The notes: generated by a model from the letters alone, not told the origin. DNA of 33,708 nucleotides from an uncultured Candidatus Saccharibacteria bacterium (GCA_964437465.1 CAYTGI010000008.1:1-33708); one strand, 5' to 3'. Counted from the stretch's first letter, positions 85-24,352 are shown. Made by a program: numbers and translations.

Positions 85-193
85 AGATCTAATTTTTGAA
101 ATTATTAAGTTCGGAATATTAATTATTCTTTTAATTTTTGCTTTTGCCTATATAGCATGGTTAAATTCTGCTTCTTCATTTCCTGAGTTATAG
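74..193 (+). CDS. Small single-pass membrane protein (39 aa)
   Basis: MKNKDLIFEIIKFGILIILLIFAFAYIAWLNSASSFPEL*; ATG overlaps the sortase end, basic N-terminus then a hydrophobic stretch; its TAG stop is the start of the heptamer array. Confidence 0.5.
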   Translation: MKNKDLIFEIIKFGILIILLIFAFAYIAWLNSASSFPEL

Positions 194-234
194 TTGCTAG
201 TTGCTAGTTGCTAGTTGCTAGTTGCTAGTTGCTA
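191..234. repeat. Tandem heptamer array (TAGTTGC)x6; reads (CTAGCAA)n on the - strand
   Basis: Six exact copies at 191..232 plus TA, read directly. Confidence 0.95.
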
Positions 235-318
235 AAAATATTATAAGGTTTGGATATGAGTTTTTAAGTTATAATTACTGAATTAACAAGAGAAAATGAT
301 TATTAAAGAACTGGGAAA

Positions 319-1032
319 GTGGGCAAACTAGTTCTATTAGGAACAACAATTGGTAACCTTGAAGATATATCAATTAGAGCTTTGAGATACATATTTGAAA
401 GTCCAATCATATTAGCTGAAGATACAAGAGTTTTTATTAAATTCAAGAATATTCTAAAAGATAGATATCTAGAAGTATTAGAATCATTAGAAGTAACAAC
501 AGAAACTAATCAAACAATTTCATCATATAGAGATCAAAACCATGAAAGGGTTGTAGGCAATATTCTAGATTTGTTGAAAGATAATGATGTTGTTTTAATG
601 ACTGACGCAGGAATGCCTGCTATCTCAGACCCTGGATATAAAATTGTAAAAGAATCAATAGAAAATGGCTTTGAGATTGATGTAATCCCTGGTCCTACAG
701 CAGTTTCGAGTGCATTAGTTCTTTCTGGATTACCTACAGATCATTTTGCTTTTATTGGTTTCTTACCCAGGAAAAAAAGTCGTATAAAAAAATTGATTGA
801 TAACTACAATCTTGAACAAACATCTGTTGTGTTTTTTGAATCACCTTTTAGAATTTCTAAGACTCTTGAAGCTTTACAAACTATATATGGAGAGGATCTA
901 CTGGTTAGTGCTTGCGGGGAAATGACTAAAAAGTTTCAACGGGTGGAGCGAGGTAAAGTTTCTGAAGTAATTAATAAATTTGAGAATCAACCAGCAAAAG
1001 GGGAGTGGGTGTTAGTTATTAGGAAATCCTAG
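319..1032 (+). CDS. rsmI: 16S rRNA (cytidine1402-2'-O)-methyltransferase
   Basis: Motifs TTIGNLEDISIRA, AEDTR, TDAGMPAISDPG, PGPTA, GFLPRK, FESPFR, EMTKKF, KGEWV. Confidence 0.95.
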   Translation: MGKLVLLGTTIGNLEDISIRALRYIFESPIILAEDTRVFIKFKNILKDRYLEVLESLEVTTETNQTISSYRDQNHERVVGNILDLLKDNDVVLMTDAGMPAISDPGYKIVKESIENGFEIDVIPGPTAVSSALVLSGLPTDHFAFIGFLPRKKSRIKKLIDNYNLEQTSVVFFESPFRISKTLEALQTIYGEDLLVSACGEMTKKFQRVERGKVSEVINKFENQPAKGEWVLVIRKS

Positions 1033-1033
1033 C

Positions 1034-1054
1034 TTAGAATTTAGATATTAGTAT
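1034..1054. repeat. Degenerate heptamer run TTAGAAT-TTAGATA-TTAGTAT
   Basis: Three 7-bp units starting TTAG between convergent genes; related units occur at 23212..23251. Confidence 0.5.
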
Positions 1055-1069
1055 TTATTTTTTATCATT

Positions 1070-2578
1070 TTATCCACCTATACTCACCCTAAAGCTCAAC
1101 GCCTCCTGGATATGGGATTTATGTATCTTTTCACTTTGTTCAAGATCAGCTATTGTTCTAGAGACTTTTAAAACACGATAATAGGATCTTGCCGTTAAAT
1201 TCAATTTTTCCATAGCCTTTCTAAGTAAATCTTTTGATTCTTCATCCAGGACCAATATCTGTTTTAAGTCTTTCTGGCCCATATCTGAATTAGAATGAAT
1301 CTTTATCTTTTTAAATCTTTCTTCTTGAAGATTCTTAGCATTTTGAACTCTTTTTCTTACATTTTCTGATGATTCCTCTGTTTTATCTTTAAAGAAGTCA
1401 TCATTTTTTACTTTAGAAACATTTACTAATAAATCAATTCTATCCAATATTGGTCCCGATATCTTTTTCTGGTATCGCATTATTTCAATCTGGGTACACG
1501 TACACTCTTTATCACTATCACCAAGATAACCGCATTTACAAGGATTCATTGCAGCTACTAAAATAAAATTTGCAGGAAAGGTTAAAGTCCCGCTAGCCCT
1601 AGAAATTGTAACTATTTTATCTTCCAAAGGTTGGCGGAGTGCTTCTAAAGATTGTACTGAGAATTCTGGAAATTCATCAAGGAACAAAACACCTCTATGT
1701 GCAAGACTAATTTCACCAGGTCTAATTCTAGATCCTCCTCCTACAAGAGCTGTTTGAGATGAAGTATGGTGAGGGGTTCTAAACGGTCTTTCCTGTATTA
1801 AAGGAGAGTTTTTACTTGTTTCTCCAACAATACTATAAATCTTTGTCACTTCTAACATCTCATCTATTTTCATCTCAGGTAAGATTGCTGGAATACTTCT
1901 TGAAAGCATTGTTTTACCTGATCCTGGAACCCCAGACAAGAGTACATTATGACCTCCAGCTGCAGCTATTTCTAAAGCTCTCTTCGCATGATTCTGTCCT
2001 TTTATATCTTCAAAAAGAGAGACTTTAAATTTATCCTTTCTAATAGTTTTAATGTCACTTTTTTCAAATGCTTTTGGAATTTCTTTATTGACTAATTGCT
2101 CAAGGTGCTTAAGGCCGAATATTTCAACTCCTTCTATCAAAGATGCTTCAGCAGCATTTTCATAAGGTAAAAAAATTCTTTTAAATCCGTTCTTTTTTAT
2201 ACCGTCAACAATTGGGAGGATCCCAGAAACTGGTCGCAATCTGCCGTCTAGGGCCAATTCACCAATAAATATTGCATCATTAAAGTCGTATTCTATCTGC
2301 TCAGAAGCTAGTAAGTAGCCAACTGCTAATGGAAGATCGTAACTGGGGCCAGATTTATGGATCTCAGCTGGAGCTAAATTCATTACTATATGCATTGGAA
2401 CGTATTTTCCTCCAGAATTTCGAATTGAAGAAGGAATTCTGTCTCTCGCTTCCTGGATTGATTTATCGGCTAAACCTACAATTGAAAAGTAAGCTTTTCC
2501 TCTTCTATAATCAGTTTCAACTTCGACAATTGTGCAATTTAGACCTTCAAGTGCGGCCGTAAAAACCTTAGTAGACAT
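1070..2578 (-). CDS. comM: YifB/ComM family Mg-chelatase-like AAA+ ATPase
   Basis: NLAPA..KSGPSYDLP, GELALDG, Walker A GVPGSGKT, RPFRTPHH, PGEISLAHRGVLFLDE, AAMNPCKCG, SGPILDRID. Confidence 0.93.
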   Translation of the reverse strand: MSTKVFTAALEGLNCTIVEVETDYRRGKAYFSIVGLADKSIQEARDRIPSSIRNSGGKYVPMHIVMNLAPAEIHKSGPSYDLPLAVGYLLASEQIEYDFNDAIFIGELALDGRLRPVSGILPIVDGIKKNGFKRIFLPYENAAEASLIEGVEIFGLKHLEQLVNKEIPKAFEKSDIKTIRKDKFKVSLFEDIKGQNHAKRALEIAAAGGHNVLLSGVPGSGKTMLSRSIPAILPEMKIDEMLEVTKIYSIVGETSKNSPLIQERPFRTPHHTSSQTALVGGGSRIRPGEISLAHRGVLFLDEFPEFSVQSLEALRQPLEDKIVTISRASGTLTFPANFILVAAMNPCKCGYLGDSDKECTCTQIEIMRYQKKISGPILDRIDLLVNVSKVKNDDFFKDKTEESSENVRKRVQNAKNLQEERFKKIKIHSNSDMGQKDLKQILVLDEESKDLLRKAMEKLNLTARSYYRVLKVSRTIADLEQSEKIHKSHIQEALSFRVSIGG

Positions 2579-2592
2579 TTTTATTTTTTAAT

Positions 2593-3816: not shown

Positions 3817-3826
3817 GAAGAATTAT

Positions 3827-3864
3827 AACCTATACTTGCACTCTTACTAACGCAAGTATAGGTT
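3827..3864. promoter_or_regulatory. 13-bp perfect inverted repeat abutting the tsaD -10 box (operator or terminator)
   Basis: AACCTATACTTGC (3827..3839), 12-nt loop, GCAAGTATAGGTT (3852..3864); no clear U-tract. Confidence 0.5.
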
Positions 3865-3870
3865 TCGAAT

Positions 3871-4194
3871 TTATTGAACAGAAAGGTAGAAAAGCAACAG
3901 ATAAATATTTGCATAAAGAAGAAAAGTTAGAATAGCAAACATCACTATCCTTACAACTGCCCAGCCCTTAAGATCAATCCAGTATTTGTTGTCCTTAGTT
4001 CTTTTTAAACTTGACCAAGAAACCATTGGCCCCATTAAATATAGAGCAAAAAAAGGATCTTCTAGCTTTATCGCCTTACTTTCTCTAAATGCATCGTTTG
4101 CTCCAATCCACCTTGCTACCCTAATTACCATCGCAATATTAAATACATTCACTACTAAAAGCAAAAGTAGTAAACCGATCATTAAATTTTCCAT
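3871..4194 (-). CDS. Hypothetical membrane protein
   Basis: 107 aa, ATG start, hydrophobic segments at both ends; fills the intergenic gap. Confidence 0.7.
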   Translation of the reverse strand: MENLMIGLLLLLLVVNVFNIAMVIRVARWIGANDAFRESKAIKLEDPFFALYLMGPMVSWSSLKRTKDNKYWIDLKGWAVVRIVMFAILTFLLYANIYLLLFYLSVQ

Positions 4195-4278
4195 ATACTC
4201 AGGAATTTAATAAATATTCTTATTTTCAACATTTTACACTTATAAAAAAGTGATTTGTAGTAGGTGTTACAATTAAAA

Positions 4279-4734: not shown

Positions 4735-4742
4735 ATTCTAGA

Positions 4743-4770
4743 TTGAAAAAATACAAAGATTTATTAAACT
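4743..4770 (+). promoter_or_regulatory. Putative sigma70 promoter for the orphan gene pair
   Basis: TTGAAA-N16-TAAACT upstream of ATG 4793; AT-rich background lowers specificity. Confidence 0.35.
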
Positions 4771-7079: not shown

Positions 7080-7541
7080 TTAAAGTAAAACTTCTATCTT
7101 ACCTTCAAAAGCATCAGTATCTTGAAAATAAACTTTTTTAGGTTCAAATTTTAAAAATCCTTCTTTAGCACTACTCCCCTCAAAGTCTTTTTGAGTAAAG
7201 TTTTCCCCTATTAATCCAGGAAATTTTATCTCATATGTATCTATAACTTCTTTTAATTCTTTCCCTCTAATAATTTTAGCTGTCCCCGTTAACTGAATAT
7301 TTTTAAATTTATTACCTTGCTCAGAGTTTTGTTCAATTGATACTGCAACATTTTCATTTGCTATTAGATTGTAAACAGTTTTAGACTCCCTTGAAACTAA
7401 AAAGTATAAATTACCTTCCTTATCAGAAATATAAAAAGAATCCACTACCCATGGCTTTCCCTCACAAACTGTAGCTAGGCTAGCTTTAGATTCGTTTGCA
7501 AGAAAGTTTTTAGCTCTTTGTTTAATTTCATTCTCGTCCAT
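7080..7541 (-). CDS. Pyridoxamine 5'-phosphate oxidase-like FMN-binding protein
   Basis: LATVCEGKPW, LYF, SK.VYNLIANENVAVSI, IQLTGTA. Start moved to ATG 7541 (MDENEIK) to remove the overlap with divergent apbE. Confidence 0.85.
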   Translation of the reverse strand: MDENEIKQRAKNFLANESKASLATVCEGKPWVVDSFYISDKEGNLYFLVSRESKTVYNLIANENVAVSIEQNSEQGNKFKNIQLTGTAKIIRGKELKEVIDTYEIKFPGLIGENFTQKDFEGSSAKEGFLKFEPKKVYFQDTDAFEGKIEVLL

Positions 7542-7578
7542 AGTTGTATAATTAAAACATGAATTGTCAATAATTAAA

Positions 7579-8439
7579 ATGAGAAGGGTTATATTTCGAG
7601 AAAAAAAATTTATGAATACTATTATAGCTATCACAGTTATTCAAGATAATGTAGGGACTATTGAGATTAATGAAGCTCTAGAAGATGCATTTTTTCAGTT
7701 TGAAAAAGTTGTTGAAAAATATACCAGATTTAACAATACAAGCGAGCTTGCTAAGCTGAATAAATCTAACTCGCCTTACAGAGTAAGTAAAGAATTTTTT
7801 GAGCTTATAGAATTTATGCTTTCAATGTCAAAAAGAACGAATGGAGCATTTGATCCCACAATTATTGACTTTTTAGAAGTGTATGGGTATGACAAAGATT
7901 ACGATTTTAGCAAATTGGACAATCCAAATTTGGATAGTTTCGTAAAAAATGTAAAAGAAAAAAGAGGCTACTGGGACCAGATTAAACTAGATAAGGATAA
8001 TTCTACAATACACCTTCCCCAAAATACGAAAATTGATTTAGGCTCAGTTGGCAAAGGTTTTGCTATTGACCTAGCATTTAACACTTTAGAAAAGGTTTCA
8101 AATAATTTTCTTATTAATGCTGGAGGAGATATTAGAGCAAAAGGTAAGAACTATGAAAACCGATGGTGGACTATTAACTTAAAAGGGAAAGATGGCTCAA
8201 ATGGAGCTATTGAACTTAAAAATCAATCGTTAAGTAGCTCAGGCTCATGGGCTCGTAAAGTTAAACAGTTTCATCACCTTATAGATCCAAGTACTGGAAA
8301 ACCTGCAGAAAAAAAATATTCAACTGTTTTTACTCTGGGTAAAAACTCATTAATTACAGATGCCTGGGCAACTGCACTTTTTATCTTAGGAGAAGAAACT
8401 GAAGAATCTAAAAAGGATGTATTAGCTCTTTTCGTCTAA
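7579..8439 (+). CDS. apbE: FAD:protein FMN transferase ApbE (no signal peptide seen)
   Basis: FMNT, SELAKLN, GAFDPT, IDLGSVGKGFAID, INAGGDIRA, SSSG, HHLIDPSTG, DAWATALF. Confidence 0.92.
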   Translation: MRRVIFREKKFMNTIIAITVIQDNVGTIEINEALEDAFFQFEKVVEKYTRFNNTSELAKLNKSNSPYRVSKEFFELIEFMLSMSKRTNGAFDPTIIDFLEVYGYDKDYDFSKLDNPNLDSFVKNVKEKRGYWDQIKLDKDNSTIHLPQNTKIDLGSVGKGFAIDLAFNTLEKVSNNFLINAGGDIRAKGKNYENRWWTINLKGKDGSNGAIELKNQSLSSSGSWARKVKQFHHLIDPSTGKPAEKKYSTVFTLGKNSLITDAWATALFILGEETEESKKDVLALFV

Positions 8440-8991: not shown

Positions 8992-9645
8992 ATGGAAGAA
9001 GACAATTCAAAAAAACAAGGTATCTCCTGCAGATCGTTAAGCTGCTTTATTTTAATCATTCTATCAGTTTGTTTTTTAAGTGTTTTCTTTATTATCTTTT
9101 CAAAGCCACCTGCAATTTGGGAAATAATAGTTGATTACAATAATAAGGACGGAGGACTAAATTATGAATTAGAAATTACAAAAGAGGAAGCTCAAGAACT
9201 AATTGAATCACAGATCGATGAGATTGGTGAAAATGTAATTGAAATTCCTGAAGATTACGTATCAGTTTTAGCAAGAGACAGTTTTTCTGAGTTAAAAAAT
9301 CTTACTGTTGATATGGAAGAAGATAAAATGAAGTTATATTGGTCAATTGAGCAGATCGAAACCCCAAAGCCTTTAATAGGATATGCTGAAATAAGAAAAA
9401 ATATTGATAACGAACTCTATGTAGAACAGCTAGGTACTCCAAGGTTTAGACTACCTAGAGCTTTGAATAATTCTTTATCGACTGCAGCATTAGCTGTATT
9501 TAGCTTTGGAGAAGAAAAGGCTGAAAATAACAATCTTTTATACAAAATACTTTCAGCTGATGATTCAGTTCAAATTAATGATGTAAACTTCAAAGAAGAT
9601 GTTTTAGAAATAATAATTAATGTAGAAGTGAGACTATATGATTAA
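8992..9645 (+). CDS. Hypothetical protein with N-terminal membrane anchor
   Basis: 217 aa; Cys-containing TM (CRSLSCFILIIL) then an acidic domain; overlaps the holA start. Confidence 0.75.
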   Translation: MEEDNSKKQGISCRSLSCFILIILSVCFLSVFFIIFSKPPAIWEIIVDYNNKDGGLNYELEITKEEAQELIESQIDEIGENVIEIPEDYVSVLARDSFSELKNLTVDMEEDKMKLYWSIEQIETPKPLIGYAEIRKNIDNELYVEQLGTPRFRLPRALNNSLSTAALAVFSFGEEKAENNNLLYKILSADDSVQINDVNFKEDVLEIIINVEVRLYD

Positions 9646-11832: not shown

Positions 11833-14800
11833 ATGAAAAAGAAAAAATTCTTGCTTATAGGTTTAATTTCAATTTTATTAGTTTTACTACTTTCTGGAGT
11901 ATTTTTATTGAATAATCCTTCTGTTGACAATCTTCGTGTTACTAATATTTCATCAAATTCCGCTACGATTTCTTGGGAGACAGAGGATGATGTTGTTGGA
12001 AAAGTTTTAGTTAAAAGAAATAATACATGGACTCCTATTGATGGATTAATTAATTCTGGTGAGGAACATTATGATGACAGAGATATTGAATTAAATTCAG
12101 AAGGTGAATACGTAAAAAAAGAATTTAATGGAAGAACTATTCACCACGTAACAGTAAGAAAATTAAACCCAGAACAAGAATATTTCTTTAGAGTAGATAC
12201 CGGAAGTAAGATCGTAGACGCAGAAATAAATAGCTTTACAACAGCTCCTGTTCAAGAGTCATTTCCTAGTCCAAAAACAATCGTTGGAAAAGCAGCCCTA
12301 ATAAATGGCGCTGCTCCAACAAACGGAGTTGTTTACTACCAAGTTATTGGAACTAATCCTGAAGATGTTCAATCACAGCCGATTTCTCCAACTGGGACCT
12401 TTTCATTAGATATATCAACACAATTACAAAAATTGGAACCAGATAATGGAGAAATACCTGTAAATATTGATTCTCCAGAAGTAACAATAGATATAATTTC
12501 AGATAGTGGATCAATTAAATTAGACTATACTTTCCCAGCTGATTTGACAGAAGCATTTGCAGATATAGGTACTTTAGTATTAGAACCTATTGATGAATCT
12601 TTAATAAATGATATTTCTGTTTCTGATGAGCAAGAATGCGTTTGGTCTTGCAATGGTGCATGTGCATATCCACCAGATGTAAAAAACTTTAATGATGCTC
12701 ATAATGGAAATGGATATTGTAATTGGATGTACGAAGCTGGATGCGGTGCTTGTGCTCCTGAAGAGGAAACTCACAATAATGATAATGGAGGTTCTAGTGG
12801 TGGACAACCAGCTACTGGAGGTGGTGGCGGCGGAGCATGTATTCAGCCAGGAGAGAGTAAAAGTAATTGGAGCGATTGCGATCAGTCTTGTGGAATGAGT
12901 GCTTGTGATGGTAATGGACCTCTACAGTGCTATAGAACTAGTGCAGGAGATAAATGTTTAACTGATGAATCATACAATGCATTAATTAGTGGAGGTAATG
13001 ACAATAGTGGAAATACAGGAGGTTCTGGTGAGACTGGGGGAAATGGAACAGGAGGAAATGAAGGGTCAGGAGGAGGGACTTCTACAGGGCCTTCTTGTGC
13101 TCAGCAATGTCTCCAACAACTAGAAGACGGAACAGGGGGAGATATAGGGACTGCACAGTGTCAAAGAAATTGTGAAGCTGCAGGTGGTGGTGGAACTGCT
13201 CCAAGCACAACTAGATGCTGGTACATAAACGGATCAGCTTGCACCATAAAGACAGTATTTAATAGAGATTGTAGAACAAGCGAAGGGGAATACCCTATGT
13301 CCCAAAGTAATCGATGTTCAAGAGATGCTAGGGCAGCAACTGAAGTGGAGCCAAGACCTGCATGTAATGGCTTTTGGGTTGTTGGAAACTCTTGTAATAA
13401 TCCTAATGCAGGAGTAATCCAGAATTATACAAATTCTGAAGGCCTCCTTGAGGTATGTTGTAGAACTAATTCTTCCGGTGGCGGAGATGATCAGGGTAAT
13501 AACTCAGATGAGGGAATGGAAAATCAAAGACCAGCTTGTAATGGATATTGGGTTGTTGGAAACTCTTGTAATAACCCTAATGCAGGAGTAATTCAATCTT
13601 TTACGAATTCAAATGGCCAAGGAGAGGTTTGTTGTAGAACTAATCCTTCAGATGGAGGGAGTAGTCAAGGAGGCAATCAAGATAATAATGAGCCAGAAGT
13701 AACAGTTCCTAGAAATAGAACCTGTTTTGTTGAAGACGAAGATTCACTAGAGGGAAGCTGTTTTAGTGTAAATGAAAGTGAGCTAGATCAGTACGGAGAA
13801 AGCCAATGTATGCTAGATCAACGAGTTTGTATTAATATTGCAAACGCTAATGCTGCAAGAAGGAGACAGGCTCAAGGGGAAGAAGAAGAGGTTCCCTTAT
13901 TGCCCTCTGAAGAAAATGCAGGAGACGATGAGGATACAGATGGAGGTGGAGCACAGAATTCTAATACATGTAGGGATAATGCCGGAGTTGCAAGCTGTCA
14001 AGGTGAAGCTGTTGGTCACACATATGAATCTAATGGAGAAACTTTTGAATGTTATATTTATCAACCAGAAAACCCAACTTATAACTATTGTCTAGGAAGC
14101 CTGATTAGTGAAAGTAATATTAGTCCAGGAGATGAAGAAGAAGATACTTCTGAAGAAACAGATGGAGAGACTTTGGGTCCTTGTAACAGTGATGATGTTT
14201 GCCAATCTGTTCCAAGAAGGGATGATGCGACTTGTTTAAATGGAACAATACCTTCTGTTTGTTGTCCTCCAAACAATAGAATTAGTTTTATAGGTAGTGA
14301 TGTTTTTTGTGCTCCAATTCCTGAAGAAGAACCAATAACACAAACTCAGTCCCAAATAACCTGCAATAGTGGCGATATAGTTGAAGCTAATAGAAGTCAA
14401 TGTACAGCATTTTTTGGAAGTAATAATGCCGATTATGCTGAATTTGAAGTTAACGGAAACTCTGTAACTTGTGTATTTTTTAATGCAGATGGAAATGAGG
14501 TTGGAAGACAAACTATTGTTTTTAGAGGATGTAATAATGAAGGCTTTAGTAGAAATAATACCAATTACTCTCCGTTTAATTTTGTAGTGCCTAAAGTCTC
14601 AGCTCAAACTGATGATGATCCACCTGCTCCTGAGATAATTGACCCAACCCTTCTACAAAAAGGCCTATATGTAGTTGAAGTTCCAGGATACGAGACTGCT
14701 GAATTCGAGATCTTCTACGATAATATCCGAGTTAGTTATTTTGAGGACCAGAATGCAGATGGAATAAAACAAGCTAATGAGCCAAACTTAGATCCAAATA

Positions 14801-15387
14801 TTTATGAAATTAAATTATCTCAAACTGCTTCAATAGCAACTAGAGAGCTTAGTAGAGGATGGAATCTTCTAGGATTTGAAATTTTTTCCGAAGAGTATGA
14901 TTCTGCAGCAGAACTAATCTCCTATCTAGCTGATCAAGGAATTTTTGTAGAACAGATATCTCAGTATGACAGCGGTAACTGGATTCACTTTATTCAAACA
15001 ACTAACTCAGTAGGTCAACCAGAAGTATACGGAGCTAGTTTTAACTTGGTTCCTGGTAAAAGCTATTTTGTAAGATCATTAAGTACTGGGACCGCAGCTT
15101 TCAAGGGACAAGAATTCACAAGTTCAGTACCAATAAAACTTAATACGGGATGGAACTTAGTAAGTATCCAATCTGCAGTTAACTATACAGCGCAAACAGT
15201 ATTACAATTGTGTGGTGCTAATAGTATTTTCTGTACAAATGTAAGTCAATGGATTGACGGTGCTGGCTATTATGACTCCTATGAATCTGTTGATGGAACT
15301 TCATTTGGAAATAATTTTATTATATATGAAAATAGAGGCTACTTTATTAAAGTAGAAAGCGATGGATCATTCACTATTAATCCTTAA
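11833..15387 (+). CDS. Large surface protein: TM anchor, FN3-like domain, Cys/Gly-rich cassette, DxNxDG motif, two GWNL repeats
   Basis: RVTNISSNSATISWET...HHVTVRKLNPEQEYFFRV (FN3/PAP-N); Cys-rich 12637..14532; FEDQNADGIKQANEP; LSRGWNLLG and LNTGWNLVS. Confidence 0.85.
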   Translation: MKKKKFLLIGLISILLVLLLSGVFLLNNPSVDNLRVTNISSNSATISWETEDDVVGKVLVKRNNTWTPIDGLINSGEEHYDDRDIELNSEGEYVKKEFNGRTIHHVTVRKLNPEQEYFFRVDTGSKIVDAEINSFTTAPVQESFPSPKTIVGKAALINGAAPTNGVVYYQVIGTNPEDVQSQPISPTGTFSLDISTQLQKLEPDNGEIPVNIDSPEVTIDIISDSGSIKLDYTFPADLTEAFADIGTLVLEPIDESLINDISVSDEQECVWSCNGACAYPPDVKNFNDAHNGNGYCNWMYEAGCGACAPEEETHNNDNGGSSGGQPATGGGGGGACIQPGESKSNWSDCDQSCGMSACDGNGPLQCYRTSAGDKCLTDESYNALISGGNDNSGNTGGSGETGGNGTGGNEGSGGGTSTGPSCAQQCLQQLEDGTGGDIGTAQCQRNCEAAGGGGTAPSTTRCWYINGSACTIKTVFNRDCRTSEGEYPMSQSNRCSRDARAATEVEPRPACNGFWVVGNSCNNPNAGVIQNYTNSEGLLEVCCRTNSSGGGDDQGNNSDEGMENQRPACNGYWVVGNSCNNPNAGVIQSFTNSNGQGEVCCRTNPSDGGSSQGGNQDNNEPEVTVPRNRTCFVEDEDSLEGSCFSVNESELDQYGESQCMLDQRVCINIANANAARRRQAQGEEEEVPLLPSEENAGDDEDTDGGGAQNSNTCRDNAGVASCQGEAVGHTYESNGETFECYIYQPENPTYNYCLGSLISESNISPGDEEEDTSEETDGETLGPCNSDDVCQSVPRRDDATCLNGTIPSVCCPPNNRISFIGSDVFCAPIPEEEPITQTQSQITCNSGDIVEANRSQCTAFFGSNNADYAEFEVNGNSVTCVFFNADGNEVGRQTIVFRGCNNEGFSRNNTNYSPFNFVVPKVSAQTDDDPPAPEIIDPTLLQKGLYVVEVPGYETAEFEIFYDNIRVSYFEDQNADGIKQANEPNLDPNIYEIKLSQTASIATRELSRGWNLLGFEIFSEEYDSAAELISYLADQGIFVEQISQYDSGNWIHFIQTTNSVGQPEVYGASFNLVPGKSYFVRSLSTGTAAFKGQEFTSSVPIKLNTGWNLVSIQSAVNYTAQTVLQLCGANSIFCTNVSQWIDGAGYYDSYESVDGTSFGNNFIIYENRGYFIKVESDGSFTINP
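13354..13644 (+). repeat. Intragenic duplication of a 39-aa four-Cys module
   Basis: 13354..13470 and 13528..13644 both encode RPACNG(F/Y)WVVGNSCNNPNAGVIQxxTNSxGxxEVCCRTN. Confidence 0.9.
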
Positions 15388-15389
15388 CT

Positions 15390-16442
15390 ATGAGATTAAA
15401 AGAAAATGGGACAATCATACTAACTGTATTTTTTCTCATTCTGATTGCAATTTTAGGATTTATTAGTTTATATATTTTTTCTTTATCAGAAGATCAAGAC
15501 GATGTTGGGGTTTCTGATACTGAAGGTCCACCGCCAAAAGAGGTAATAATTAGTAATCTAACAAATTCATCTGCCACTATATCTTGGGTTACAGATACCC
15601 CTTCAATAGGTTATGTAAAATATGGAGAAAGTGTTTCCGAAATAGAATCAACTGCTAATGATGTTCAAGGGGATGGTGTAAACGCAAATCAAAATCTTCA
15701 CTATGTGAGATTAACAAGTTTAGACCCTGGTCAAGAATATTTTGTTGAGATATATAATAATGACACTGCTTTTAATAATGCAGGGGAGTTCTATAAATTT
15801 ACTACTTTTGAAAATAACGATATTTCAACACCAAATACATTAAGAGTATCTTTACCTTCAGGAACAACAAACGCAATAGTTTACGCTCATGCATCAAACG
15901 GAGGGAGTACTTCAACAGTTTCTTCATTAAGAGCTACCAATGAATCTGTTTTATTACAGTTGAATAATTTAAAAGACAAAGTTAATGGGGATGAATACAA
16001 TTTAGATGGTAATCTTATCAGGATTTTTGCTACTGCTACTGATGGAACTAGGTATGCAAGAGATATAGAAAAATTTGATGAGATTATCGCATTTAGCCAA
16101 GCAGATACAGTTGCTTCGTTCTATGATCCAAACGCAGTTATTGGAACAATTGTAGCAGAAGAACCTGAACCAATTCCTGAACCTGAGCCAGAACCTACTA
16201 CAGAACCTGTTCCAGATCCTGTTCCAACACCACAACCTCAACCAACTCCACAGCCTGTACCTCAGCCACAACCTACACTTCCTCCTGCAGGGGGAGAAGA
16301 ACCTAATGTCCCTGTAAATGATATTAACAATATCCCTGACACTGCAATTAGTAGTGAAATATTGTCTAGTTTTGGATCAATTTTAGGAGGGTTACTATTA
16401 GCTGCATTTGGATTAAGTTTTTGGAGAGAAAAAAAATCTTAG
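15390..16442 (+). CDS. FN3-domain surface protein with Pro-rich stalk and sortase-type sorting signal (IPDTA)
   Basis: N-terminal TM; ISNLTNSSATISWVT...HYVRLTSLDPGQEY; PE/PQ stalk; IPDTA (16332..16346), hydrophobic stretch, REKKS tail. Confidence 0.85.
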   Translation: MRLKENGTIILTVFFLILIAILGFISLYIFSLSEDQDDVGVSDTEGPPPKEVIISNLTNSSATISWVTDTPSIGYVKYGESVSEIESTANDVQGDGVNANQNLHYVRLTSLDPGQEYFVEIYNNDTAFNNAGEFYKFTTFENNDISTPNTLRVSLPSGTTNAIVYAHASNGGSTSTVSSLRATNESVLLQLNNLKDKVNGDEYNLDGNLIRIFATATDGTRYARDIEKFDEIIAFSQADTVASFYDPNAVIGTIVAEEPEPIPEPEPEPTTEPVPDPVPTPQPQPTPQPVPQPQPTLPPAGGEEPNVPVNDINNIPDTAISSEILSSFGSILGGLLLAAFGLSFWREKKS

Positions 16443-17710: not shown

Positions 17711-18576
17711 GAAACTAATTCTCTTAACTTTATAAGTAATTTTATCAGCTTATATTTAGAACTATCTACTATTAAATCAAAAGAGTCCGTGTACTCAAAA
17801 ACCTCTCCTATAAATTTAAACTTAAAGTTTGAGAAACCCTTCTTTTCATCTTCATCTATACCGAACATATCAAATATTTCTAGTCCCCCACTATTTGCCC
17901 ATTTTAAACAATTCCAAACATGAAAAAATGATGCTCTTAGGTTTTTTTGTTTTTCACTTGATCCTGTATATAGATAATAAGCTACAGAATCGTGTTTAAT
18001 AATAAAACTCGATACAAGAAGTTCATCTTGAAAATAAGTTTGAGCAATTACAAGATTATCTTTTGCTGCATCAAAGACAGCTTCTAAGTATTTGTAACCT
18101 CTTGGAGCAACTTTATGTCTTTTCATTGTTGCTTCGTATAAATTTGAAAACTTATTGAAAGATTCTTTATCCGTTCTGAAATATGTGGTTAATCCATCTT
18201 TTTCCCCTTTACGAATATAATATCTATCCTTTCTTTTCATATCTGATAAGAATTCATCCTCACTAAAACCAAGCTTTACTATGTATGTTTTTCGTAACTG
18301 AACTGGTTTTGTTGGAACTAGATTTTTATCAAGTTCTTCCTTGTTAACTGGATCAATTTGTATATGTGATAATTTCTTTTTATTTCCAATTTCTTGTAGC
18401 TCTTCTAACAATTGATCATCCACAACTGGTCGTGACATGTATCCAATTCTAAACCCTAGAATAGGAACCTTAGATATTGTTCCCCAGGCTTTTGAAGTCT
18501 CAAAAATCTCATAACCTTGATTGATTTTACTCCGCTTCCAAATATCTGATTGTAGTAAATGATTAATATCTATCAT
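17707..18576 (-). CDS. FemAB/FemX-like peptidyltransferase (GNAT fold)
   Basis: HLLQSDIW, MKRKDRYYIRKGEKDG, YYLYTGS, FDMFG, GFSNFKFKFIG. Start at ATG 18576 preferred; ATGA-coupled to the DegT gene. Confidence 0.85.
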   Translation of the reverse strand: MIDINHLLQSDIWKRSKINQGYEIFETSKAWGTISKVPILGFRIGYMSRPVVDDQLLEELQEIGNKKKLSHIQIDPVNKEELDKNLVPTKPVQLRKTYIVKLGFSEDEFLSDMKRKDRYYIRKGEKDGLTTYFRTDKESFNKFSNLYEATMKRHKVAPRGYKYLEAVFDAAKDNLVIAQTYFQDELLVSSFIIKHDSVAYYLYTGSSEKQKNLRASFFHVWNCLKWANSGGLEIFDMFGIDEDEKKGFSNFKFKFIGEVFEYTDSFDLIVDSSKYKLIKLLIKLRELVS

Positions 18577-19618
18577 TTCTATAAACGTAGTAATCAAATA
18601 GTCTATTTAAATAATACATAGGAGTATTATTACAAACCTCATATGTTCCTGAAAAACTCATTATTTCTCCGGGAAACTTCATCTTAAAGTTACTCATACT
18701 CCTCCAAACATGATCAATTCCTTTAGGAACAACTCCCCACATACTGTATTGACTATAGCCATGCTCAATAGCATTTTTTATAATCGTCCAATGTAGAAAA
18801 TACGGAGCAGCTAACTTCGAAAGTTCTGGATCAGATGTAGAGCCTCCGTGAGAGTAGAAGATAGTTGTTTCGTTATAGTTAATTAGAGCTCCAGCGATTG
18901 TTTTTCCTTCGAACTTTGCTAAGAATACTCTAGTTATAGGTTTGATATCTTTCGTCTTTAAATCAACATTCAGAGCCTTCCACTGATCAATAAAGTATGA
19001 GTCATTAAAGTTTTGAAAACCTTTTCTTTCTTTTGTCTCATTTAAAATGTTTACAAACTCTCTAACTTCTTCTTCACTTGTTGCTTCAACTATCTCAACT
19101 CCTAATTTCTCAGCCCTTCTTACATAATACCTAGTATCTTTTTTAAAACTCATTAATGTTTTTTCTTCATTCTCTTTAAAATCAATCACCCACATATCTT
19201 TGGCCTGGCCTGGAGAAAATGATTTTTTCCATCCAGTTTTTTCTAATGATTTAATTTTCTCATCTCTTAACAGAGTATCTATTTTAAAATAGTTTAATCC
19301 TTGAGCTTTAATAAACGATTTTGCAAATACTGAAAGGTCAATAAGAAAATTCTCCAAATCATTTTCTATTACTTTTTCCAACAATACAGGGCTATGTGGT
19401 GAGTAGGCATATTTAGCTATTTTTCTTCTAAAAATTTCAATATATAAAGTACCTACTACTTCGTCATCTTTCTTAATCCAGAATCGTTTGGTATTTTTAC
19501 CTATGCTTTTTTGAAACTCTATCCAGTCATATAAGGTTAGGAATGAAGAAAAACCTTCATAATTAATTTTGTCCCATAACTCTTTCTCATTGTTAAACTC
19601 CTCAAAGGTATACGTCAT
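18563..19618 (-). CDS. FemAB/FemX-like peptidyltransferase
   Basis: SFLTLYDW, YSPHSPV, FKKDTRYYVRRAEKLGV, YSHGGS, YFLHW, YSMWG, NFKMKFPG. Confidence 0.88.
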   Translation of the reverse strand: MTYTFEEFNNEKELWDKINYEGFSSFLTLYDWIEFQKSIGKNTKRFWIKKDDEVVGTLYIEIFRRKIAKYAYSPHSPVLLEKVIENDLENFLIDLSVFAKSFIKAQGLNYFKIDTLLRDEKIKSLEKTGWKKSFSPGQAKDMWVIDFKENEEKTLMSFKKDTRYYVRRAEKLGVEIVEATSEEEVREFVNILNETKERKGFQNFNDSYFIDQWKALNVDLKTKDIKPITRVFLAKFEGKTIAGALINYNETTIFYSHGGSTSDPELSKLAAPYFLHWTIIKNAIEHGYSQYSMWGVVPKGIDHVWRSMSNFKMKFPGEIMSFSGTYEVCNNTPMYYLNRLFDYYVYRNDRY

Positions 19619-19655
19619 GGGTTAATTATACACAAGGAAAATGTTGTTAGCTATA

Positions 19656-19685
19656 AGTTGCTAGTTGCTAGTTGCTAGTTGCTAG
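19656..19685. repeat. Tandem heptamer array (AGTTGCT)x4; reads (CTAGCAA)n on the - strand
   Basis: Four exact copies at 19656..19683 plus AG. Confidence 0.95.
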
Positions 19686-19727
19686 AAAATTATAAGATCC
19701 TGATCGAAATTAACAATTATTAATTAG

Positions 19728-20879
19728 TTAAGAATCTCTTCTCATTGGCATAACCAAATGTATGTAGTTTGGGTCTTCATTATCTTTGAAAACAGAAGCT
19801 GCTAGTGGACCTTTTGTCTCTACAATAATTTTATCTCCTTTAATGTGGTTCACAATATCTTGAAGGTATCTTAATGTATAAGCAGTTTTTAAATCACTAT
19901 CTCCACTTGTATTGGACACAATTACCTCTGTTTCTCCTTCTCCTACTTCAGCAACCGCTGACTTCAATCGTATTTCATTATTTTCAATATCAAAATCGAA
20001 CAGTGTTTTATTTCCTAAATTACCTCTAGCAAAAGTATTTGTAATTTTTATTGCTTCTTCTAAATCTTTCTTTTTTACTTCGTATGTATATTGGAAATCA
20101 TCAGGCATTATTCTTTTATAGTCTGGGTATGGACCCTCGAGTAATCTGACACTAAATTCAATATCATCAAATTTAAAAATAAGTTGTGAACCACTCTCAC
20201 TTAAAAATACTTCTACATTTTCTATCTCTGGATAATCTGAAATAATTCTTGTAAGCTCATTTAGATATCTTGCTGGAACTATTATCTCTTCTTTTTCAAA
20301 ATTTGGATCAATATTTTTAATTTGAACAACTCTTTTAGAAAGTCTAAATCCATCTAGACCTATAAAATGAACTTCATTTTGCTCTTTATCTATTTCAAAG
20401 AAAACTCCTGATTGTTGAATTCTTCCTGCAGAAAGGTCTGTTGAACATGCGAATAATGTTTTATCCATTGATTCAACAAAATCTATAGTACTAATTGTAA
20501 AAATTGGTTTCTCAGTTGTTTTTGGAAGAACTGGAAATTCATCTGAAGGAATTGTTGTGAATGTTGCTTTAGATTTTGAAGTTCTTACATAAAGAGTAGA
20601 ATCTCTAAGTTCTAAAGTAATATTGTCATCACTTGAAGTTGCTGAAACAAAGTCAGAAATGTATTTAGCATTTACTGTTATTGTTCCCTCGTCTTCAACC
20701 TGACAGTCTATCCACATCTGTATACCCATATCTAAGTTTGTTGCCGCTAGTTTTAATGCATTCTCAGAAGAAGATAAAAGTACGTTAGAAAGTATAGGTA
20801 TATTAGGCTTTCCGCTTACTGATTTACTAGAGTATCCTAGTGCTTTTGAGAGTTTTGAATGTTTTAAAGTTACCTTCAT
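19728..20879 (-). CDS. dnaN: DNA polymerase III beta clamp
   Basis: PILSNVLL, ATNLD, EFPVLP, LDGFRLS, RLLEGPYPDYKRIMP, LVMPMR. Confidence 0.97.
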   Translation of the reverse strand: MKVTLKHSKLSKALGYSSKSVSGKPNIPILSNVLLSSSENALKLAATNLDMGIQMWIDCQVEDEGTITVNAKYISDFVSATSSDDNITLELRDSTLYVRTSKSKATFTTIPSDEFPVLPKTTEKPIFTISTIDFVESMDKTLFACSTDLSAGRIQQSGVFFEIDKEQNEVHFIGLDGFRLSKRVVQIKNIDPNFEKEEIIVPARYLNELTRIISDYPEIENVEVFLSESGSQLIFKFDDIEFSVRLLEGPYPDYKRIMPDDFQYTYEVKKKDLEEAIKITNTFARGNLGNKTLFDFDIENNEIRLKSAVAEVGEGETEVIVSNTSGDSDLKTAYTLRYLQDIVNHIKGDKIIVETKGPLAASVFKDNEDPNYIHLVMPMRRDS

Positions 20880-21306
20880 ATCTATTAATTATTTTAATTA
20901 GAAGTATTTAGTAATAGTGAATGTAAATAAGTGTATAAGTTTTTAAATCTCATTATTATAACAGGAAAACTCTGGTTTTTATTCTGTGGAATAGCAATGT
21001 GAATAAAATTTGCTTCATTTTCATCATTCTTCTTGTATATCAGATTTTGATACATATTCTGTTTGTGTAAAGAATTCTAACAGATTATACAGTAATTATG
21101 GTAATTTCATTGTTGGCTAATGATCAATCTCAAGTGAACAATAATATTTGATCAATTTTCTAGTTATAAAATAGAGGCTCTATGTCACCATAGTTGAAAC
21201 ACATTAGACCCGAAGTATAAGTAGAGTAGCATTTTCCACAAACAAGTAATCACTCAATACCCTTTCTGTTATATTTAATTAAAATATATTTTTGTATTTA
21301 TCCACA
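20880..21306. other. Replication origin oriC (DnaA boxes and DUE)
   Basis: TTWTNCACA matches at 21298..21306 (TTATCCACA), 21232..21240 and 20998..21006 (-); near matches at 20922..20938, 20985..20993 and 21064..21072; AT-rich trio-like tract 20881..20920; lies between dnaA and dnaN. Confidence 0.85.
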
Positions 21307-21330
21307 GTATTAAAATCGATATAGCAAATG

Positions 21331-21359
21331 TTGACCAAATTAGCTAACAAAGATAATAT
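21331..21359 (+). promoter_or_regulatory. Putative sigma70 promoter of the orphan at 21410
   Basis: TTGACC-N17-TAATAT, 24 nt from the perfect DnaA box. Confidence 0.55.
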
Positions 21360-21409
21360 GGTTATGTATCCAAATGAAGGAGACATACTTTAATTATTAA
21401 TATTTTATT

Positions 21410-21787
21410 ATGGCAATGAGTGTTATTGACGAAACTGAAACTCAGGAAACTACTGTAATTTCCCCAAATTTCTTAGAAACACAAGAAGATCTTCCACAAG
21501 TTACACTGAATGATGAGGATCCCGGTTATTTTGCGGAGAAATATAGGCATATTATAGGAACAGGAATGGAACAAAATATAAGGAAATTTGGTATCAGTGC
21601 ATTTAATTCCTTTTTTGATGGAATAGATTTTAGAAATCCACATCATCACCAACCATCGCTCATTAGGAAAATGCAAACATATATTCAATTTGGCATTGAT
21701 GCAGGAAAATATTCTATAGAGGAACTTCCAGAAAACTATAGAAATATTCTAGAATATAATCCTTATAATAGATATGCTGAAGCTTAA
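21410..21787 (+). CDS. Hypothetical protein between oriC and dnaA
   Basis: 125-aa ATG ORF with an upstream promoter; stop overlaps the dnaA stop (TTAA). Confidence 0.7.
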   Translation: MAMSVIDETETQETTVISPNFLETQEDLPQVTLNDEDPGYFAEKYRHIIGTGMEQNIRKFGISAFNSFFDGIDFRNPHHHQPSLIRKMQTYIQFGIDAGKYSIEELPENYRNILEYNPYNRYAEA

Positions 21788-23190
21788 TCTATATCTTCAG
21801 TTACAACAGCACTATCGTTGATTGTAGTTATGATCTTTGAGATCTGTAGATTAAACTCATCTTGAAGCATCATCTTACTTTTAATCTTATCCAGAGCATG
21901 GAGTACAGTTGTGTGATCTTTTCGACTTAGAAAAGACGCAACTTGCTCCAGCTTGTAATTAAACTCTTCTCGAAGAATATACATAGCAACTTGCCTAGCA
22001 AGAGCTAGATCTTTTGTTCTTCTAGGACCTTTCATGTCTTTAACTTTTACTCCAAAACTTTTCGAAACTTCCCTTAAAACTTTCGGAACTTTAACTTGTT
22101 CTCTTCTACTTTTAGCATCTCTTCCAAGCATATGCGCAACTTCTTCAAGAGTTAGATCTCCGTTAGGTTTCATTTGATTGAATAATGAAACTTTTTGAAG
22201 AGCACCTTCAAGTTCACGAACGTTATCAGTTATTGATCTAGCAATAAATTCTAATATTTTTTGATTCAAATCAATTCCAAGTGTTGCTGCTTTCTTTTCA
22301 ACAATAGCTAATCGCATCTCAAAGTCAGGCTGTCCTACATCTGCAACCATACCTCCTTGTAGTCTAGATTTAAGTCTACTTTCTAAGTTTTTTATATCAT
22401 CAGGTTTTCTATCAGCAATAATTACAATCTGTTTTCCTGCGTTATAAAGCTCGTTAAATGTATTGAAAAATTCATCTTGAGTTTGAACCCATTTTGAAAT
22501 TAGCTGAATATCATCAATTATTAAAAGATCCATAGCTCTATATTTTTTTCTAAATCGTTCCATCTGACCAGTTTTAATTCCACGAACCATATCGTTTAAG
22601 AAATTTTCTGATGGGGTATAAATAATTTTTCTTGATATATTTCTTTCTAACATTCCAATTCCAATTGCTTGAGCAAGATGAGTTTTTCCTACACCAGTCT
22701 TTCCATGAATAAATAGAGGATTATAAACTTGTCCTGGATTTTCAATAGCAGCAATTGCTGCTGCATGAGCAATTCTATTAGCGTTTCCAACTACAAAATT
22801 TGAAAGAGAGTATTTTGTATTTAATCCTGAGTCTTCAATCGCTTTAATAACCGACCCCATTACTCCGTTTTCAGTAGCTAGAAGGGGAGACTCATCTGCT
22901 GAAGGTTTTTTTTCTACTTGAGAGGAGTTAATTGCAACTCTAAATATAGGTTGAAGGGTAGCTCCGTAAACATAAGTTAATGTGTCTTGAATTAATTTTT
23001 CATGTCTCATTTTTAACCAGTCTGCAGTATAGGGATTAGGAACACCGATTATCGCTTTTTTACCCTCTATTTGTGTAAGTTCAGTATCTTGAAAAAAAGT
23101 TTTGAACTGTGCAGGTGCATCGAGTTTAATCTCAAGCTGAGCTAATGTGGTTTTCCAAAGTTCTTTTGGTTCTTTAATCTTCATAGCCAT
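21784..23190 (-). CDS. dnaA: Chromosomal replication initiator DnaA
   Basis: NFVVG..N, YNPLFIHGKTGVGKTHL, IDDIQ, QDEFFNTFN, RELEGAL, ARQVAMY, RKDHTTVLHA. Confidence 0.98.
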   Translation of the reverse strand: MAMKIKEPKELWKTTLAQLEIKLDAPAQFKTFFQDTELTQIEGKKAIIGVPNPYTADWLKMRHEKLIQDTLTYVYGATLQPIFRVAINSSQVEKKPSADESPLLATENGVMGSVIKAIEDSGLNTKYSLSNFVVGNANRIAHAAAIAAIENPGQVYNPLFIHGKTGVGKTHLAQAIGIGMLERNISRKIIYTPSENFLNDMVRGIKTGQMERFRKKYRAMDLLIIDDIQLISKWVQTQDEFFNTFNELYNAGKQIVIIADRKPDDIKNLESRLKSRLQGGMVADVGQPDFEMRLAIVEKKAATLGIDLNQKILEFIARSITDNVRELEGALQKVSLFNQMKPNGDLTLEEVAHMLGRDAKSRREQVKVPKVLREVSKSFGVKVKDMKGPRRTKDLALARQVAMYILREEFNYKLEQVASFLSRKDHTTVLHALDKIKSKMMLQDEFNLQISKIITTINDSAVVTEDID

Positions 23191-23217
23191 TATTGAAAAA
23201 TTATAAACTACAATATC

Positions 23218-23248
23218 TAAATCCTAAATCTTTAGAATTTAGGATTTA
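23218..23248. promoter_or_regulatory. 12-bp inverted repeat upstream of dnaA
   Basis: TAAATCCTAAAT, 7-nt loop, ATTTAGGATTTA. Confidence 0.55.
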
Positions 23249-23256
23249 TTTAATAT

Positions 23257-23272
23257 ATATCCACGTGGATAA
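23257..23272. promoter_or_regulatory. Two overlapping inverted DnaA-box-like sites
   Basis: ATATCCACG and CGTGGATAA form the 14-bp palindrome TATCCACGTGGATA upstream of dnaA. Confidence 0.6.
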
Positions 23273-23361
23273 GTTGTAAAGAAGAAATTTATTATAAATT
23301 AACAATTACTAATTAATAATTGAAAATTAGACTGCTATAATTAGTAAATTAAGAAATACTT

Positions 23362-23739
23362 ATGATTAAAAGTTTACCCTTTTCAGTTTTCTACTGTGAG
23401 TCTGTAGAAAATACTTATAGTTTTTGGAAATCATTAGACTTTAATATTTTGAATAAAGAAGAAGATAAGATTGTGGTAGGGTTTTCAGATTTTGAGATTC
23501 ATTATATATTAGATTCAACTGAGCCTTTTAAAGAATATCAATTTGCAACCAGAAAAGAAGGTAGAGGTAATGGAGTTCTAATTTACTTTGAAATTGGTCA
23601 AATTGAAGAGTTTAAAAATAAAGTAGGGAAGCTGAAGACAGAAGTGATTACTGATATAAAAGAAAATCATTGGGGTGGAAGAGAATTTATGTTTTCCGAT
23701 CCTGATGGTTTTTTGTTTGTTGCCTATTCAATGAATTAA
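23362..23739 (+). CDS. VOC/glyoxalase/bleomycin-resistance family protein
   Basis: SFWKSLDF, GVLIYFEI, HWGGREFMFSDPDG. Confidence 0.88.
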   Translation: MIKSLPFSVFYCESVENTYSFWKSLDFNILNKEEDKIVVGFSDFEIHYILDSTEPFKEYQFATRKEGRGNGVLIYFEIGQIEEFKNKVGKLKTEVITDIKENHWGGREFMFSDPDGFLFVAYSMN

Positions 23740-23764
23740 TCAATTACTAATTAGTTTAAAACTT

Positions 23765-24238
23765 ATGATTTTAGAATTTGGAGAGAAACATCCTGAAGCT
23801 GAGTATAGAAAATCAATTGGAGCAGTTATTTTTAATCCTGAAAAAACAAAAGTCTTAGGATTGGATTGGCATATTTATTCTGTATACGGAATTGTTCAAG
23901 GAGGTCAGGATGAAGGTGAAACTGAAGTACAAACGCTTAAAAGAGAAATTGTTGAAGAGACAGGATATCAAAACTTTGAGATCATTGAGAAACTTGGAGA
24001 TAATATATTTTCATATTTTTACGCTGATAATAAAGGCCTTTGGAGAAAACTAGAACTAGCTTGTTACAAAGTTGAACTTATAAATTTAGAACAAGATGAG
24101 CAGGAGCTTGAAGATAACGAAGATTTTGACCTTAAATGGGTTTATATCGATGAATTTATAGGAATGATTGATAAGCATACTCCTACAAAATCACAAAACT
24201 TCTTGGGATTAAGAGAATTTTTGTTAAGAGCTAAATAA
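23765..24238 (+). CDS. NUDIX hydrolase
   Basis: Nudix box GGQDEGETEVQTLKREIVEETGY. Confidence 0.9.
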   Translation: MILEFGEKHPEAEYRKSIGAVIFNPEKTKVLGLDWHIYSVYGIVQGGQDEGETEVQTLKREIVEETGYQNFEIIEKLGDNIFSYFYADNKGLWRKLELACYKVELINLEQDEQELEDNEDFDLKWVYIDEFIGMIDKHTPTKSQNFLGLREFLLRAK

Positions 24239-24282
24239 TTAATTAAAAGTATGTCCTATTTGCAGAGTGAGCTATAATTTTT

Positions 24283-24352
24283 CTAGCAACTAGCAACTAG
24301 CAACTAGCAACTAGCAACTAGCAACTAGCAACTAGCAACTCACAACTCACAA
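24283..24352. repeat. Tandem heptamer array (CTAGCAA)x8 + (CTCACAA)x2
   Basis: Eight exact copies at 24283..24338, then two variant units. Confidence 0.95.

Follow-up and report, generated by a model that had tools for sequence, protein, structure and literature searches.

Heptamers are reported to be the commonest unit of long simple sequence repeats (SSRs) in prokaryotes (Mrazek 2007, quoted in PMC4679880), and a few sets of them have been described in some detail. The TAACTGA direct repeats found in marine Beggiatoaceae, in some Cyanobacteria and in Bacteroidetes (MacGregor 2015, PMC4679880) lie mostly in forward orientation, within a few nucleotides of start codons and in regions that are poor in ribosome binding sites; they are accompanied by 7-nt indels between strains, and S1, Csp or CsrA have been suggested as their readers, but their function is given there as unexplained. 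In Haemophilus influenzae, heptamer tracts upstream of hmw1A and hmw2A modulate expression, possibly via two alternative start sites (PMC2651432), and an (AACAACC)n tract stands 13 bp upstream of a gene for a TonB-dependent receptor (PMC2651432; Dawid 1999 cited there). Nostoc PCC 7120 has heptamer repeats upstream of start codons, and deletion of the heptamer at recO changed the output of a reporter (10.1101/2022.06.06.494920), while the copy number of the TTTTGAT heptads in the cholera-toxin promoter correlates with promoter activity (10.1101/2021.05.14.444153). Here we analyse three arrays of another heptamer, CTAGCAA, in a stretch of 33,708 nucleotides (the window) deposited under the name of an uncultured Candidatus Saccharibacteria bacterium (GCA_964437465.1 CAYTGI010000008.1:1-33708). 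A first-pass annotation of the window had put the arrays forward as an undescribed system. That goes too far, since dispersed heptamer repeats close to start codons in genomes poor in Shine-Dalgarno sequences are already known from the account given of TAACTGA (PMC4679880), and the feature belongs to this known but unexplained class of heptamer repeats.

Tandem Repeats Finder returned three perfect (CTAGCAA)n arrays of period 7 with 100% matches, which together with a pattern search and direct reading bears out the positions given at first pass. Array 1 (191..234, minus strand) has 6.3 perfect units. Array 2 (19656..19685, minus strand) has 4.3 perfect units, followed on the gene-ward side by the decayed but in-register units CTTATAG and CTAACAA, and array 3 (24283..24354, plus strand) has 8.3 units that are perfect to 24340 and then two CTCACAA units. 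On the side of the promoter the arrays are perfect and sharp, while their units decay in the direction of the gene. A pattern of two units with at most two mismatches matched 16 times in the window, every time within one of the three arrays, where 0.20 matches would be expected, and 16 matches were reached in none of 100 shuffled sequences. No further exact period-7 tract, defined as at least 10 consecutive bases each matching the base 7 nt on, is present in the 33.7 kb, and all three tracts are CTAGCAA. The intergenic share of the window is only 6.3% (2120 nt), of which the three arrays occupy 146 nt. On the plus strand, the first TAG of array 1 (191-193) is the stop codon of a 39-codon open reading frame (ORF) at 74-193.

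The central observation is that every array is capped by a promoter element. On the CTAGCAA strand a perfect TATAAT stands 3-5 nt upstream of the array at all three loci, with nothing but T or A in between. At locus 1 this distal -10 box (240..245, minus strand) is followed by ATTTT (5 nt) and then by TAGCAAC of array 1, at locus 2 (19689..19694, minus strand) by TTT (3 nt) and CTAGCAAC of array 2, and at locus 3 (24273..24278, plus strand) by TTTT (4 nt) and CTAGCAAC of array 3, exactly as the flanks had been read before. Counted on both strands, the window has 49 copies of the hexamer, and its 4040 intergenic positions have 17. Estimated from this intergenic density, the chance of finding it at all three arrays is about 2e-6 for a slot of 3 positions and about 9e-5 for a slot of 11 positions. 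The feature is real and non-random, and the arrays do not have their TATAAT-T-run flank in common by chance. Beyond the TATAAT and the T-run, an alignment of the upstream flanks gave only AT-rich clutter of stop codons and promoters as common sequence. Of the earlier proposal, the shared flank is upheld, but a defined element in the sense of a mobile or copied module is not supported, because the flanks have only the -10 hexamer and the T's in common; a copied cassette was rejected on the same alignments.

Transcription from a sigma70 promoter usually starts about 7 nt past the -10 box. With the cap 3-5 nt from the array, the usual start point falls on the A/G of the first unit, and an RNA from that box would consequently begin with (CUAGCAA)n. 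The distal box of locus 1, which is back to back with the rsmI promoter, is preceded by a -35-like TTAAAA (267..262, minus strand), and that of locus 2 by TTGTTA (19716..19711, minus strand), in both cases with a 16-nt spacer and 10 of 12 matches. We also considered a promoter on the opposite strand, made up of TTGCTA as -35 and TTATAA or TATAAG as -10. The spacings would be 13-14 or 20-21 nt at all three loci, and the promoter scan lists a single 9/12 site, at locus 1 only, so that the perfect TATAAT on the CTAGCAA strand is preferred.

At loci 2 and 3, both of which lie between co-directional genes, the likeness continues on the other side of the array: the distal TATAAT and its T-run are followed first by perfect and then by decayed in-register units, and these by a second TATAAT, which stands 6 nt from the ATG. 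The proximal -10 box of locus 2 (TATAAT, 19625..19630, minus strand) stands 6 nt before the ATG (19618..19616) of a FemAB-family gene at 18563-19618, and that of locus 3, the extended -10 element TGCTATAAT (24364..24369, plus strand), 6 nt before the ATG (24376) of yidD at 24376-24663. The first-pass annotation was correct in giving the two genes -10 boxes of their own. The arrays lie between genes and have a forward orientation, at a distance of 38 nt from the ATG of the FemAB-family gene and 22-36 nt from that of yidD. With a distal -10 box on one side of the repeat tract, and a proximal one with its ATG on the other, the number of units could alter either transcription or translation. Locus 1 is a weaker form of the same layout without a long gene. 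Downstream of array 1 on the minus strand there is one decayed unit, CTATAAC, and then the ATG (179..177) of an 18-codon ORF (123..179), within which a weak -10-like CAGAAT (170..165, minus strand) precedes, by 6 nt, an in-frame ATG (158..156) that opens 11 codons. As had been noticed, this locus is antisense to peptide and sortase genes, namely to the 39-codon ORF at 74-193 (plus strand) and to the 3' end of a sortase gene at 1-84; the Pfam Sortase match of the latter (E=5e-4) is under the gathering score because only 27 of its residues are within the window. The predicted product of the 39-codon ORF is hydrophobic, and the ORF overlaps the sortase stop; the predicted product of the antisense 18- or 11-codon ORF (123-179, minus strand) is basic.

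The proximal boxes are part of a more general pattern in the window. None of its 32 gene starts has GGAG, GAGG or AGGA within 20 nt, and in four cases (tsaD, dnaA, the FemAB-family gene and yidD) a perfect TATAAT stands 5-9 nt ahead of the ATG. Such a spacing is taken as leaderless mRNA from the established distance between promoter and start codon. Since no start has a Shine-Dalgarno core, and since TATAAT lies 5-9 nt from the ATG at these four genes, the window suggests that leaderless or Shine-Dalgarno-independent initiation is widespread in the host genome. There is also a TATACT 6 nt before an ATG at 8992. As to the host itself, the nearest named relatives of its DnaA in a homology search (86-87% identity) are labelled Candidatus Dojkabacteria, a lineage of the candidate phyla radiation (CPR), and judged from this protein it looks like a Dojkabacteria-like CPR bacterium.

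The explanation that we favour, and to which we give about an even chance of being right, is that the arrays are slippage-prone SSRs transcribed from their first unit as leaders of variable length, lying between a distal promoter and a proximal promoter of the leaderless type. Slipped-strand mispairing would generate and resize the heptanucleotide repeats in the DNA of the transcribed leader, and RNA polymerase starting from the distal -10 box would make an RNA with (CUAGCAA)n at its 5' end. A leader headed by this repeat would be poor in G, have no start codon and be closed by stops in all frames, and at loci 2 and 3 it would run into the FemAB-family gene and yidD, respectively. The array would then be a variable spacer between the distal promoter, which would give a leadered mRNA, and the proximal promoter, which would give a leaderless one. 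A change in copy number would alter both the length of the leader and the distance between the promoters, and expression could in this way be tuned. We infer in this the firing of the distal boxes, the transcription of the arrays, the variation of copy number in the host and the effect on expression.

Several other identities of the repeat were tried and rejected. A coding repeat is contradicted by the stops that a run of three units has in every one of the six frames. ATG, GTG and TTG are all absent from the sense strand, while the antisense strand has one TTG per unit. The RNA of the arrays folds no better than shuffled sequences (z from -0.33 to +0.81) and makes weak CUAG:CUAG helices only, and the three array regions gave no Rfam match at gathering score and no tRNA or tmRNA, which speaks against a structured, tRNA-like or catalogued RNA. 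A discrete short repeat RNA, one of the possibilities raised at first pass, finds no support either, since there is no terminator-like site after the array at any of the three loci. A DnaA box or other origin element was dismissed because the unit is unlike a DnaA box, and the DnaA boxes of the window cluster elsewhere, in the spacer between dnaN and dnaA.

The same heptamer is found in many other bacteria. A scan of species-representative genomes, with three exact CTAGCAA units as query, found (CTAGCAA)n of at least three units at no fewer than 123 loci, spread over at least 100 assemblies that represent about 11 phyla. Going by record titles, the matches listed come from Planctomycetota, Acidobacteriota, Bacteroidota, Ignavibacteria, Cyanobacteria, Pseudomonadota, Bacillota, Actinomycetota, Chloroflexota, Gemmatimonadota and one Saccharibacteria. 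Among these matches many arrays abut tracts of variants that differ by one or two bases, e.g. TTAGCAA, CCAGCAA and CTGACAA, and about 50 other perfect period-7 tracts are present in 315 kb of flanks. The carrier genomes are heptamer-rich, and in them CTAGCAA is one member of a family of units that drifts, not necessarily the favoured one.

The orientation of the arrays relative to genes was tested on loci L001-L080 with flanks of 2 kb, which gave 83 array entries after removal of duplicates. Candidate ORFs of at least 70 codons that start within 200 nt of an array (113 distinct ones) lay downstream on the CTAGCAA strand in 69 cases and diverged from the array on the opposite strand in 45. A count of ORFs alone is too noisy in GC-rich loci, and the starts counted were those confirmed by Pfam (E <= 1e-5). 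With this filter there were 26 sense and 14 antisense starts within 200 nt of an array (one-sided binomial p 0.04), and 22 sense against 3 antisense within 60 nt (one-sided binomial p 8e-5). Gaps of 2-25 nt between array and ATG are common among the listed loci. A promoter does not fit into so short a gap, and at those loci the mRNA must therefore include the array. Six species of Chryseobacterium have an array of 3.4-10.3 copies between cistrons, at a single orthologous site some 14-24 nt ahead of the same ATG, which means that the array both persists and changes length. The heptamer thus typically seems, from these comparisons, to lie in the transcribed leader and on the sense strand outside the window, to persist through speciation and to change its length. 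Of the possibilities listed at first pass, the 5' leader of variable length is the one that the comparative data favour, both through the 22 to 3 bias and through the change of copy number in Chryseobacterium.

The Chryseobacterium loci (L010, L019, L035, L046, L069 and L106) are followed by a conserved protein of 130 residues (MITDKEF...), which has no Pfam family (DUF6483 at E=0.19 only), and in these bacteria, which can be cultivated, the repeat would be open to experiment. At L041, L061, L031/L032 and L071/L072, two inverted CTAGCAA arrays lie 0.1-1.3 kb apart and flank a single gene or an intergenic region, and the transcripts of such pairs could pair with each other. In the GC-rich metagenome-assembled genomes of Acidimicrobiia (L030, L059, L119 and L123), an AT-rich -10 box (TATAAT or TATAAG) is placed between (GGTCAGT)n upstream and (CTAGCAA)n downstream. 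Several loci show this arrangement, which has the look of a promoter set within repeats.

There are also observations that weigh against a transcribed leader. The promoter cap is not a general property of the heptamer: among the listed matches, at least 5 of the 6 bases of TATAAT were matched 0-15 nt upstream in 9 of 116 arrays, as compared with 18 of 116 controls, and for a TANNNT whose end lies 2-12 nt upstream of the array in its extended form the figures are 22 of 116 and, for the control side, 18 of 116. Reversed ATTATG start regions inflate the control count. Neither motif count yields a -10 cap that holds in general across phyla, and the enrichment of TATAAT that had been anticipated is seen at all three arrays of the window but not at the CTAGCAA arrays of other genomes. 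A perfect TATAAT was present only at L030 and L123 among the matches listed. The cap may be a peculiarity of the lineage, and as these comparisons stand it appears to belong to the lineage of the window and a few others, and not to the heptamer itself. Within the window, no -35-like hexamer was found for the distal box of locus 3, and locus 1 leads into no gene but faces an ORF of 11 or 18 codons, antisense to the sortase operon. The proximal promoters of both array-linked genes are well placed, and the array could equally act on them from upstream. In all three arrays, moreover, it is the presumed leading strand that reads CTAGCAA, a rival rule for their orientation. Finally, the Pfam filter removed 43 of the 69 sense and 31 of the 45 antisense candidate ORFs, the sense ones including five orthologous Chryseobacterium ORFs.

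By its Pfam matches the window lies at a chromosomal origin region, with dnaN at 19728-20879 and dnaA at 21784-23190, both on the minus strand. The spacer of about 900 nt between them (20880-21783) holds a perfect DnaA box at 21298 and boxes with one mismatch at 20998 and 21232, and together with 23191-23361 it is likely to be the replication origin. Another DnaA box is found at 23264, upstream of dnaA in 23191-23361. The dnaN-dnaA spacer also contains an ORF at 21410-21787 (125 aa, no Pfam match), which may be spurious or a small origin-associated gene.

The likeliest alternative to a working leader is neutral slippage, where the tracts drift without function and survive in harmless non-coding leaders, on the strand where they add no start codons, and where the TATAAT merely reflects promoter-rich spare DNA. 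With so little of the window intergenic, any array must adjoin a promoter or the end of a gene, and the TTG in each antisense unit, as opposed to the lack of start codons in the sense unit, could alone explain the sense bias. The many other heptamer tracts of the carrier genomes, often point-mutated variants abutting CTAGCAA, fit the same picture, as does the abundance of heptamers among long SSRs, which has been ascribed to polymerase slippage (Mrazek 2007, quoted in PMC4679880). It is nevertheless hard to reconcile with three caps out of three at 3-5 nt, which are improbable even against the density of intergenic TATAAT, or with a streamlined genome that gives 146 of its 2120 intergenic nucleotides to arrays of one identical heptamer at three loci, and the persistence of the array at one site across six Chryseobacterium species also speaks against it. 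We consider neutral slippage unlikely. We give a lower probability, and regard as quite unlikely, that the arrays act as duplex DNA on the proximal leaderless-type promoters, either by binding a regulator or a nucleoid protein at reiterated sites or by serving as a spacer or an UP-like element, in the manner of the TTTTGAT heptads of ctx. The arrays are well placed for it, over and upstream of the proximal -35 region, and a TATAAT 6 nt before the ATG is a recurring promoter layout in the window; heptad repeats that recruit regulators are also known, at ctxAB (10.1101/2021.05.14.444153) and for SARP regulators (PMC5930380). A duplex array would however leave no role for the perfectly conserved distal TATAAT, and it would not be expected to show a strand bias of 22 to 3. 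In other genomes the arrays are often 2-25 nt from a start codon or between cistrons, where no promoter fits, and no regulator gene is found by Pfam beside the arrays of the window.

Orientation could also be set by the replication fork, through strand-biased slippage or a polar signal near the origin. In the window the two arrays to the left (arrays 1 and 2) are on the minus strand and the one to the right (array 3) on the plus strand, i.e. on the presumed leading strand throughout, and this rule, unlike one based on genes, accommodates locus 1. There is a parallel in the TAACTGA sets of Microcystis, those between stop codons being reported to share one chromosomal orientation (PMC4679880). 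But three arrays would agree by chance in 1 case of 8, the GC (guanine and cytosine) skew of the window follows the strand of the genes with no clean switch at the origin, and replication explains neither the placement 2-60 nt before start codons nor a bias of 22 to 3, which is above the usual excess of genes on the leading strand. We find it very unlikely. Even less probable, to the point that we would be surprised by it, is a mobile or site-specifically added module, either a cassette of promoter and repeat or an enzymatic addition of repeats beside a TTATAAT target. The same heptamer with the same type of junction at three dispersed sites would suit such a module, and so would the Acidimicrobiia loci where a -10 box sits between two kinds of repeats. 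The flanks of the window arrays share too little for a cassette, however, the spacer between box and array varies from 3 to 5 nt, no terminal inverted repeats or target duplications could be read at the junctions, and Pfam gave no transposase, integrase or reverse transcriptase family among the 32 ORFs of the window.

Returning to the transcribed leader, it is possible to carry the argument one step further. We hypothesize, and give this only a slender chance, that (CUAGCAA)n and its AACT-type relatives such as TAACTGA constitute a widespread and unrecognised cis-signal, which would be read as single-stranded RNA by some conserved component, e.g. ribosomal protein S1 or an OB fold of the cold-shock type, and serve as a standby or recruitment site where the Shine-Dalgarno sequence is weak or absent. 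In the window the signal would be wired to a promoter, with the repeat number setting the balance between leadered and leaderless mRNA. The footprint of OB folds such as S1 or those of cold-shock type is roughly 6-7 nt. In addition, a plus-strand transcript over locus 1, from the 3' end of the sortase operon, would hold (UAGUUGC)n. With the leaders of loci 2 and 3 its complementarity is perfect, and it could pair with them in trans. The value of the window is that it offers a minimal case: in a compact genome region with no Shine-Dalgarno cores, one heptamer starts at the predicted start of one promoter and ends at a second promoter. A transcribed leader of variable length that tunes initiation is a simple hypothesis that can be tested. 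If the arrays are instead neutral, the case still shows where streamlined genomes tolerate the products of slippage.

Some other features of the window are worth recording. The region 11833-16442 encodes large proteins with fn3 / purple-acid-phosphatase N-terminal domains (1184 and 350 aa), the 350-aa one with a 12-nt periodic, Pro/Glu-rich coding repeat at 16161-16274, and a protein of more than 1241 aa without a Pfam match occupies 29986-33708 and runs past the end of the window; these are probably surface proteins. A divergent pair, a PNPOx-like gene at 7080-7634 (minus strand) and ApbE at 7564-8439 (plus strand), has predicted 5' ends that overlap by about 70 nt. Their GTG and TTG starts have probably been called too far upstream, and a TATAAT at 7547 (plus strand) precedes the ApbE region.

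CTAGCAA was not found as a bacterial repeat in the searchable literature, where its rotations and complements other than TGCTAGT and AGTTGCT returned only unrelated primer or eukaryotic matches. Within that literature two things seem to be new, the dual -10 layout that goes with the promoter cap, and the preference of an identical heptamer for the sense strand across phyla. The tandem 7-nt unit in the promoter region is a likeness to the cholera-toxin heptads, but these act in duplex form, as sites for binding upstream of the one promoter of a single locus (10.1101/2021.05.14.444153), whereas the strand bias of CTAGCAA and its placement near ATG in other genomes point to a transcribed element. 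With the heptamers of Nostoc PCC 7120 (10.1101/2022.06.06.494920) the arrays share a position near promoters or start codons; the repeats treated there and by Mrazek have TTTTGAA and others as units, and in the parts of these reports that we draw on no consistent promoter cap is mentioned and the mechanisms are speculative. The tracts of H. influenzae are perfect 7-nt tandems between promoter elements and a start codon, as here, and their copy number varies by strain, but they are locus-specific, with the units TGAAAGA or AACAACC in 13-38 copies at contingency genes for the surface proteins of a pathogen (PMC2651432), whereas CTAGCAA is one unit at unrelated housekeeping or envelope genes. The closest relatives remain the TAACTGA repeats (PMC4679880), which have one favoured 7-nt unit at many dispersed sites of a genome; the CTAGCAA arrays resemble them as perfect tandem sets of a 7-nt unit between genes, and in being patchily distributed across phyla. 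Two of the arrays in the window are forward and close to a start in a setting equally poor in Shine-Dalgarno sequences, and the two units, when rotated, share the core AACT plus one further base (AACTAGC and AACTGAT). The unit itself is nevertheless CTAGCAA, so that this is the same kind of repeat but a different one, and the host looks like a CPR bacterium, with 3 sets examined here, against 169 in the TAACTGA genome. What separates the CTAGCAA arrays of the window most clearly from TAACTGA, as the latter is described in that source, is the perfect -10 cap 3-5 nt upstream together with a second -10 box at leaderless distance from the start codon.

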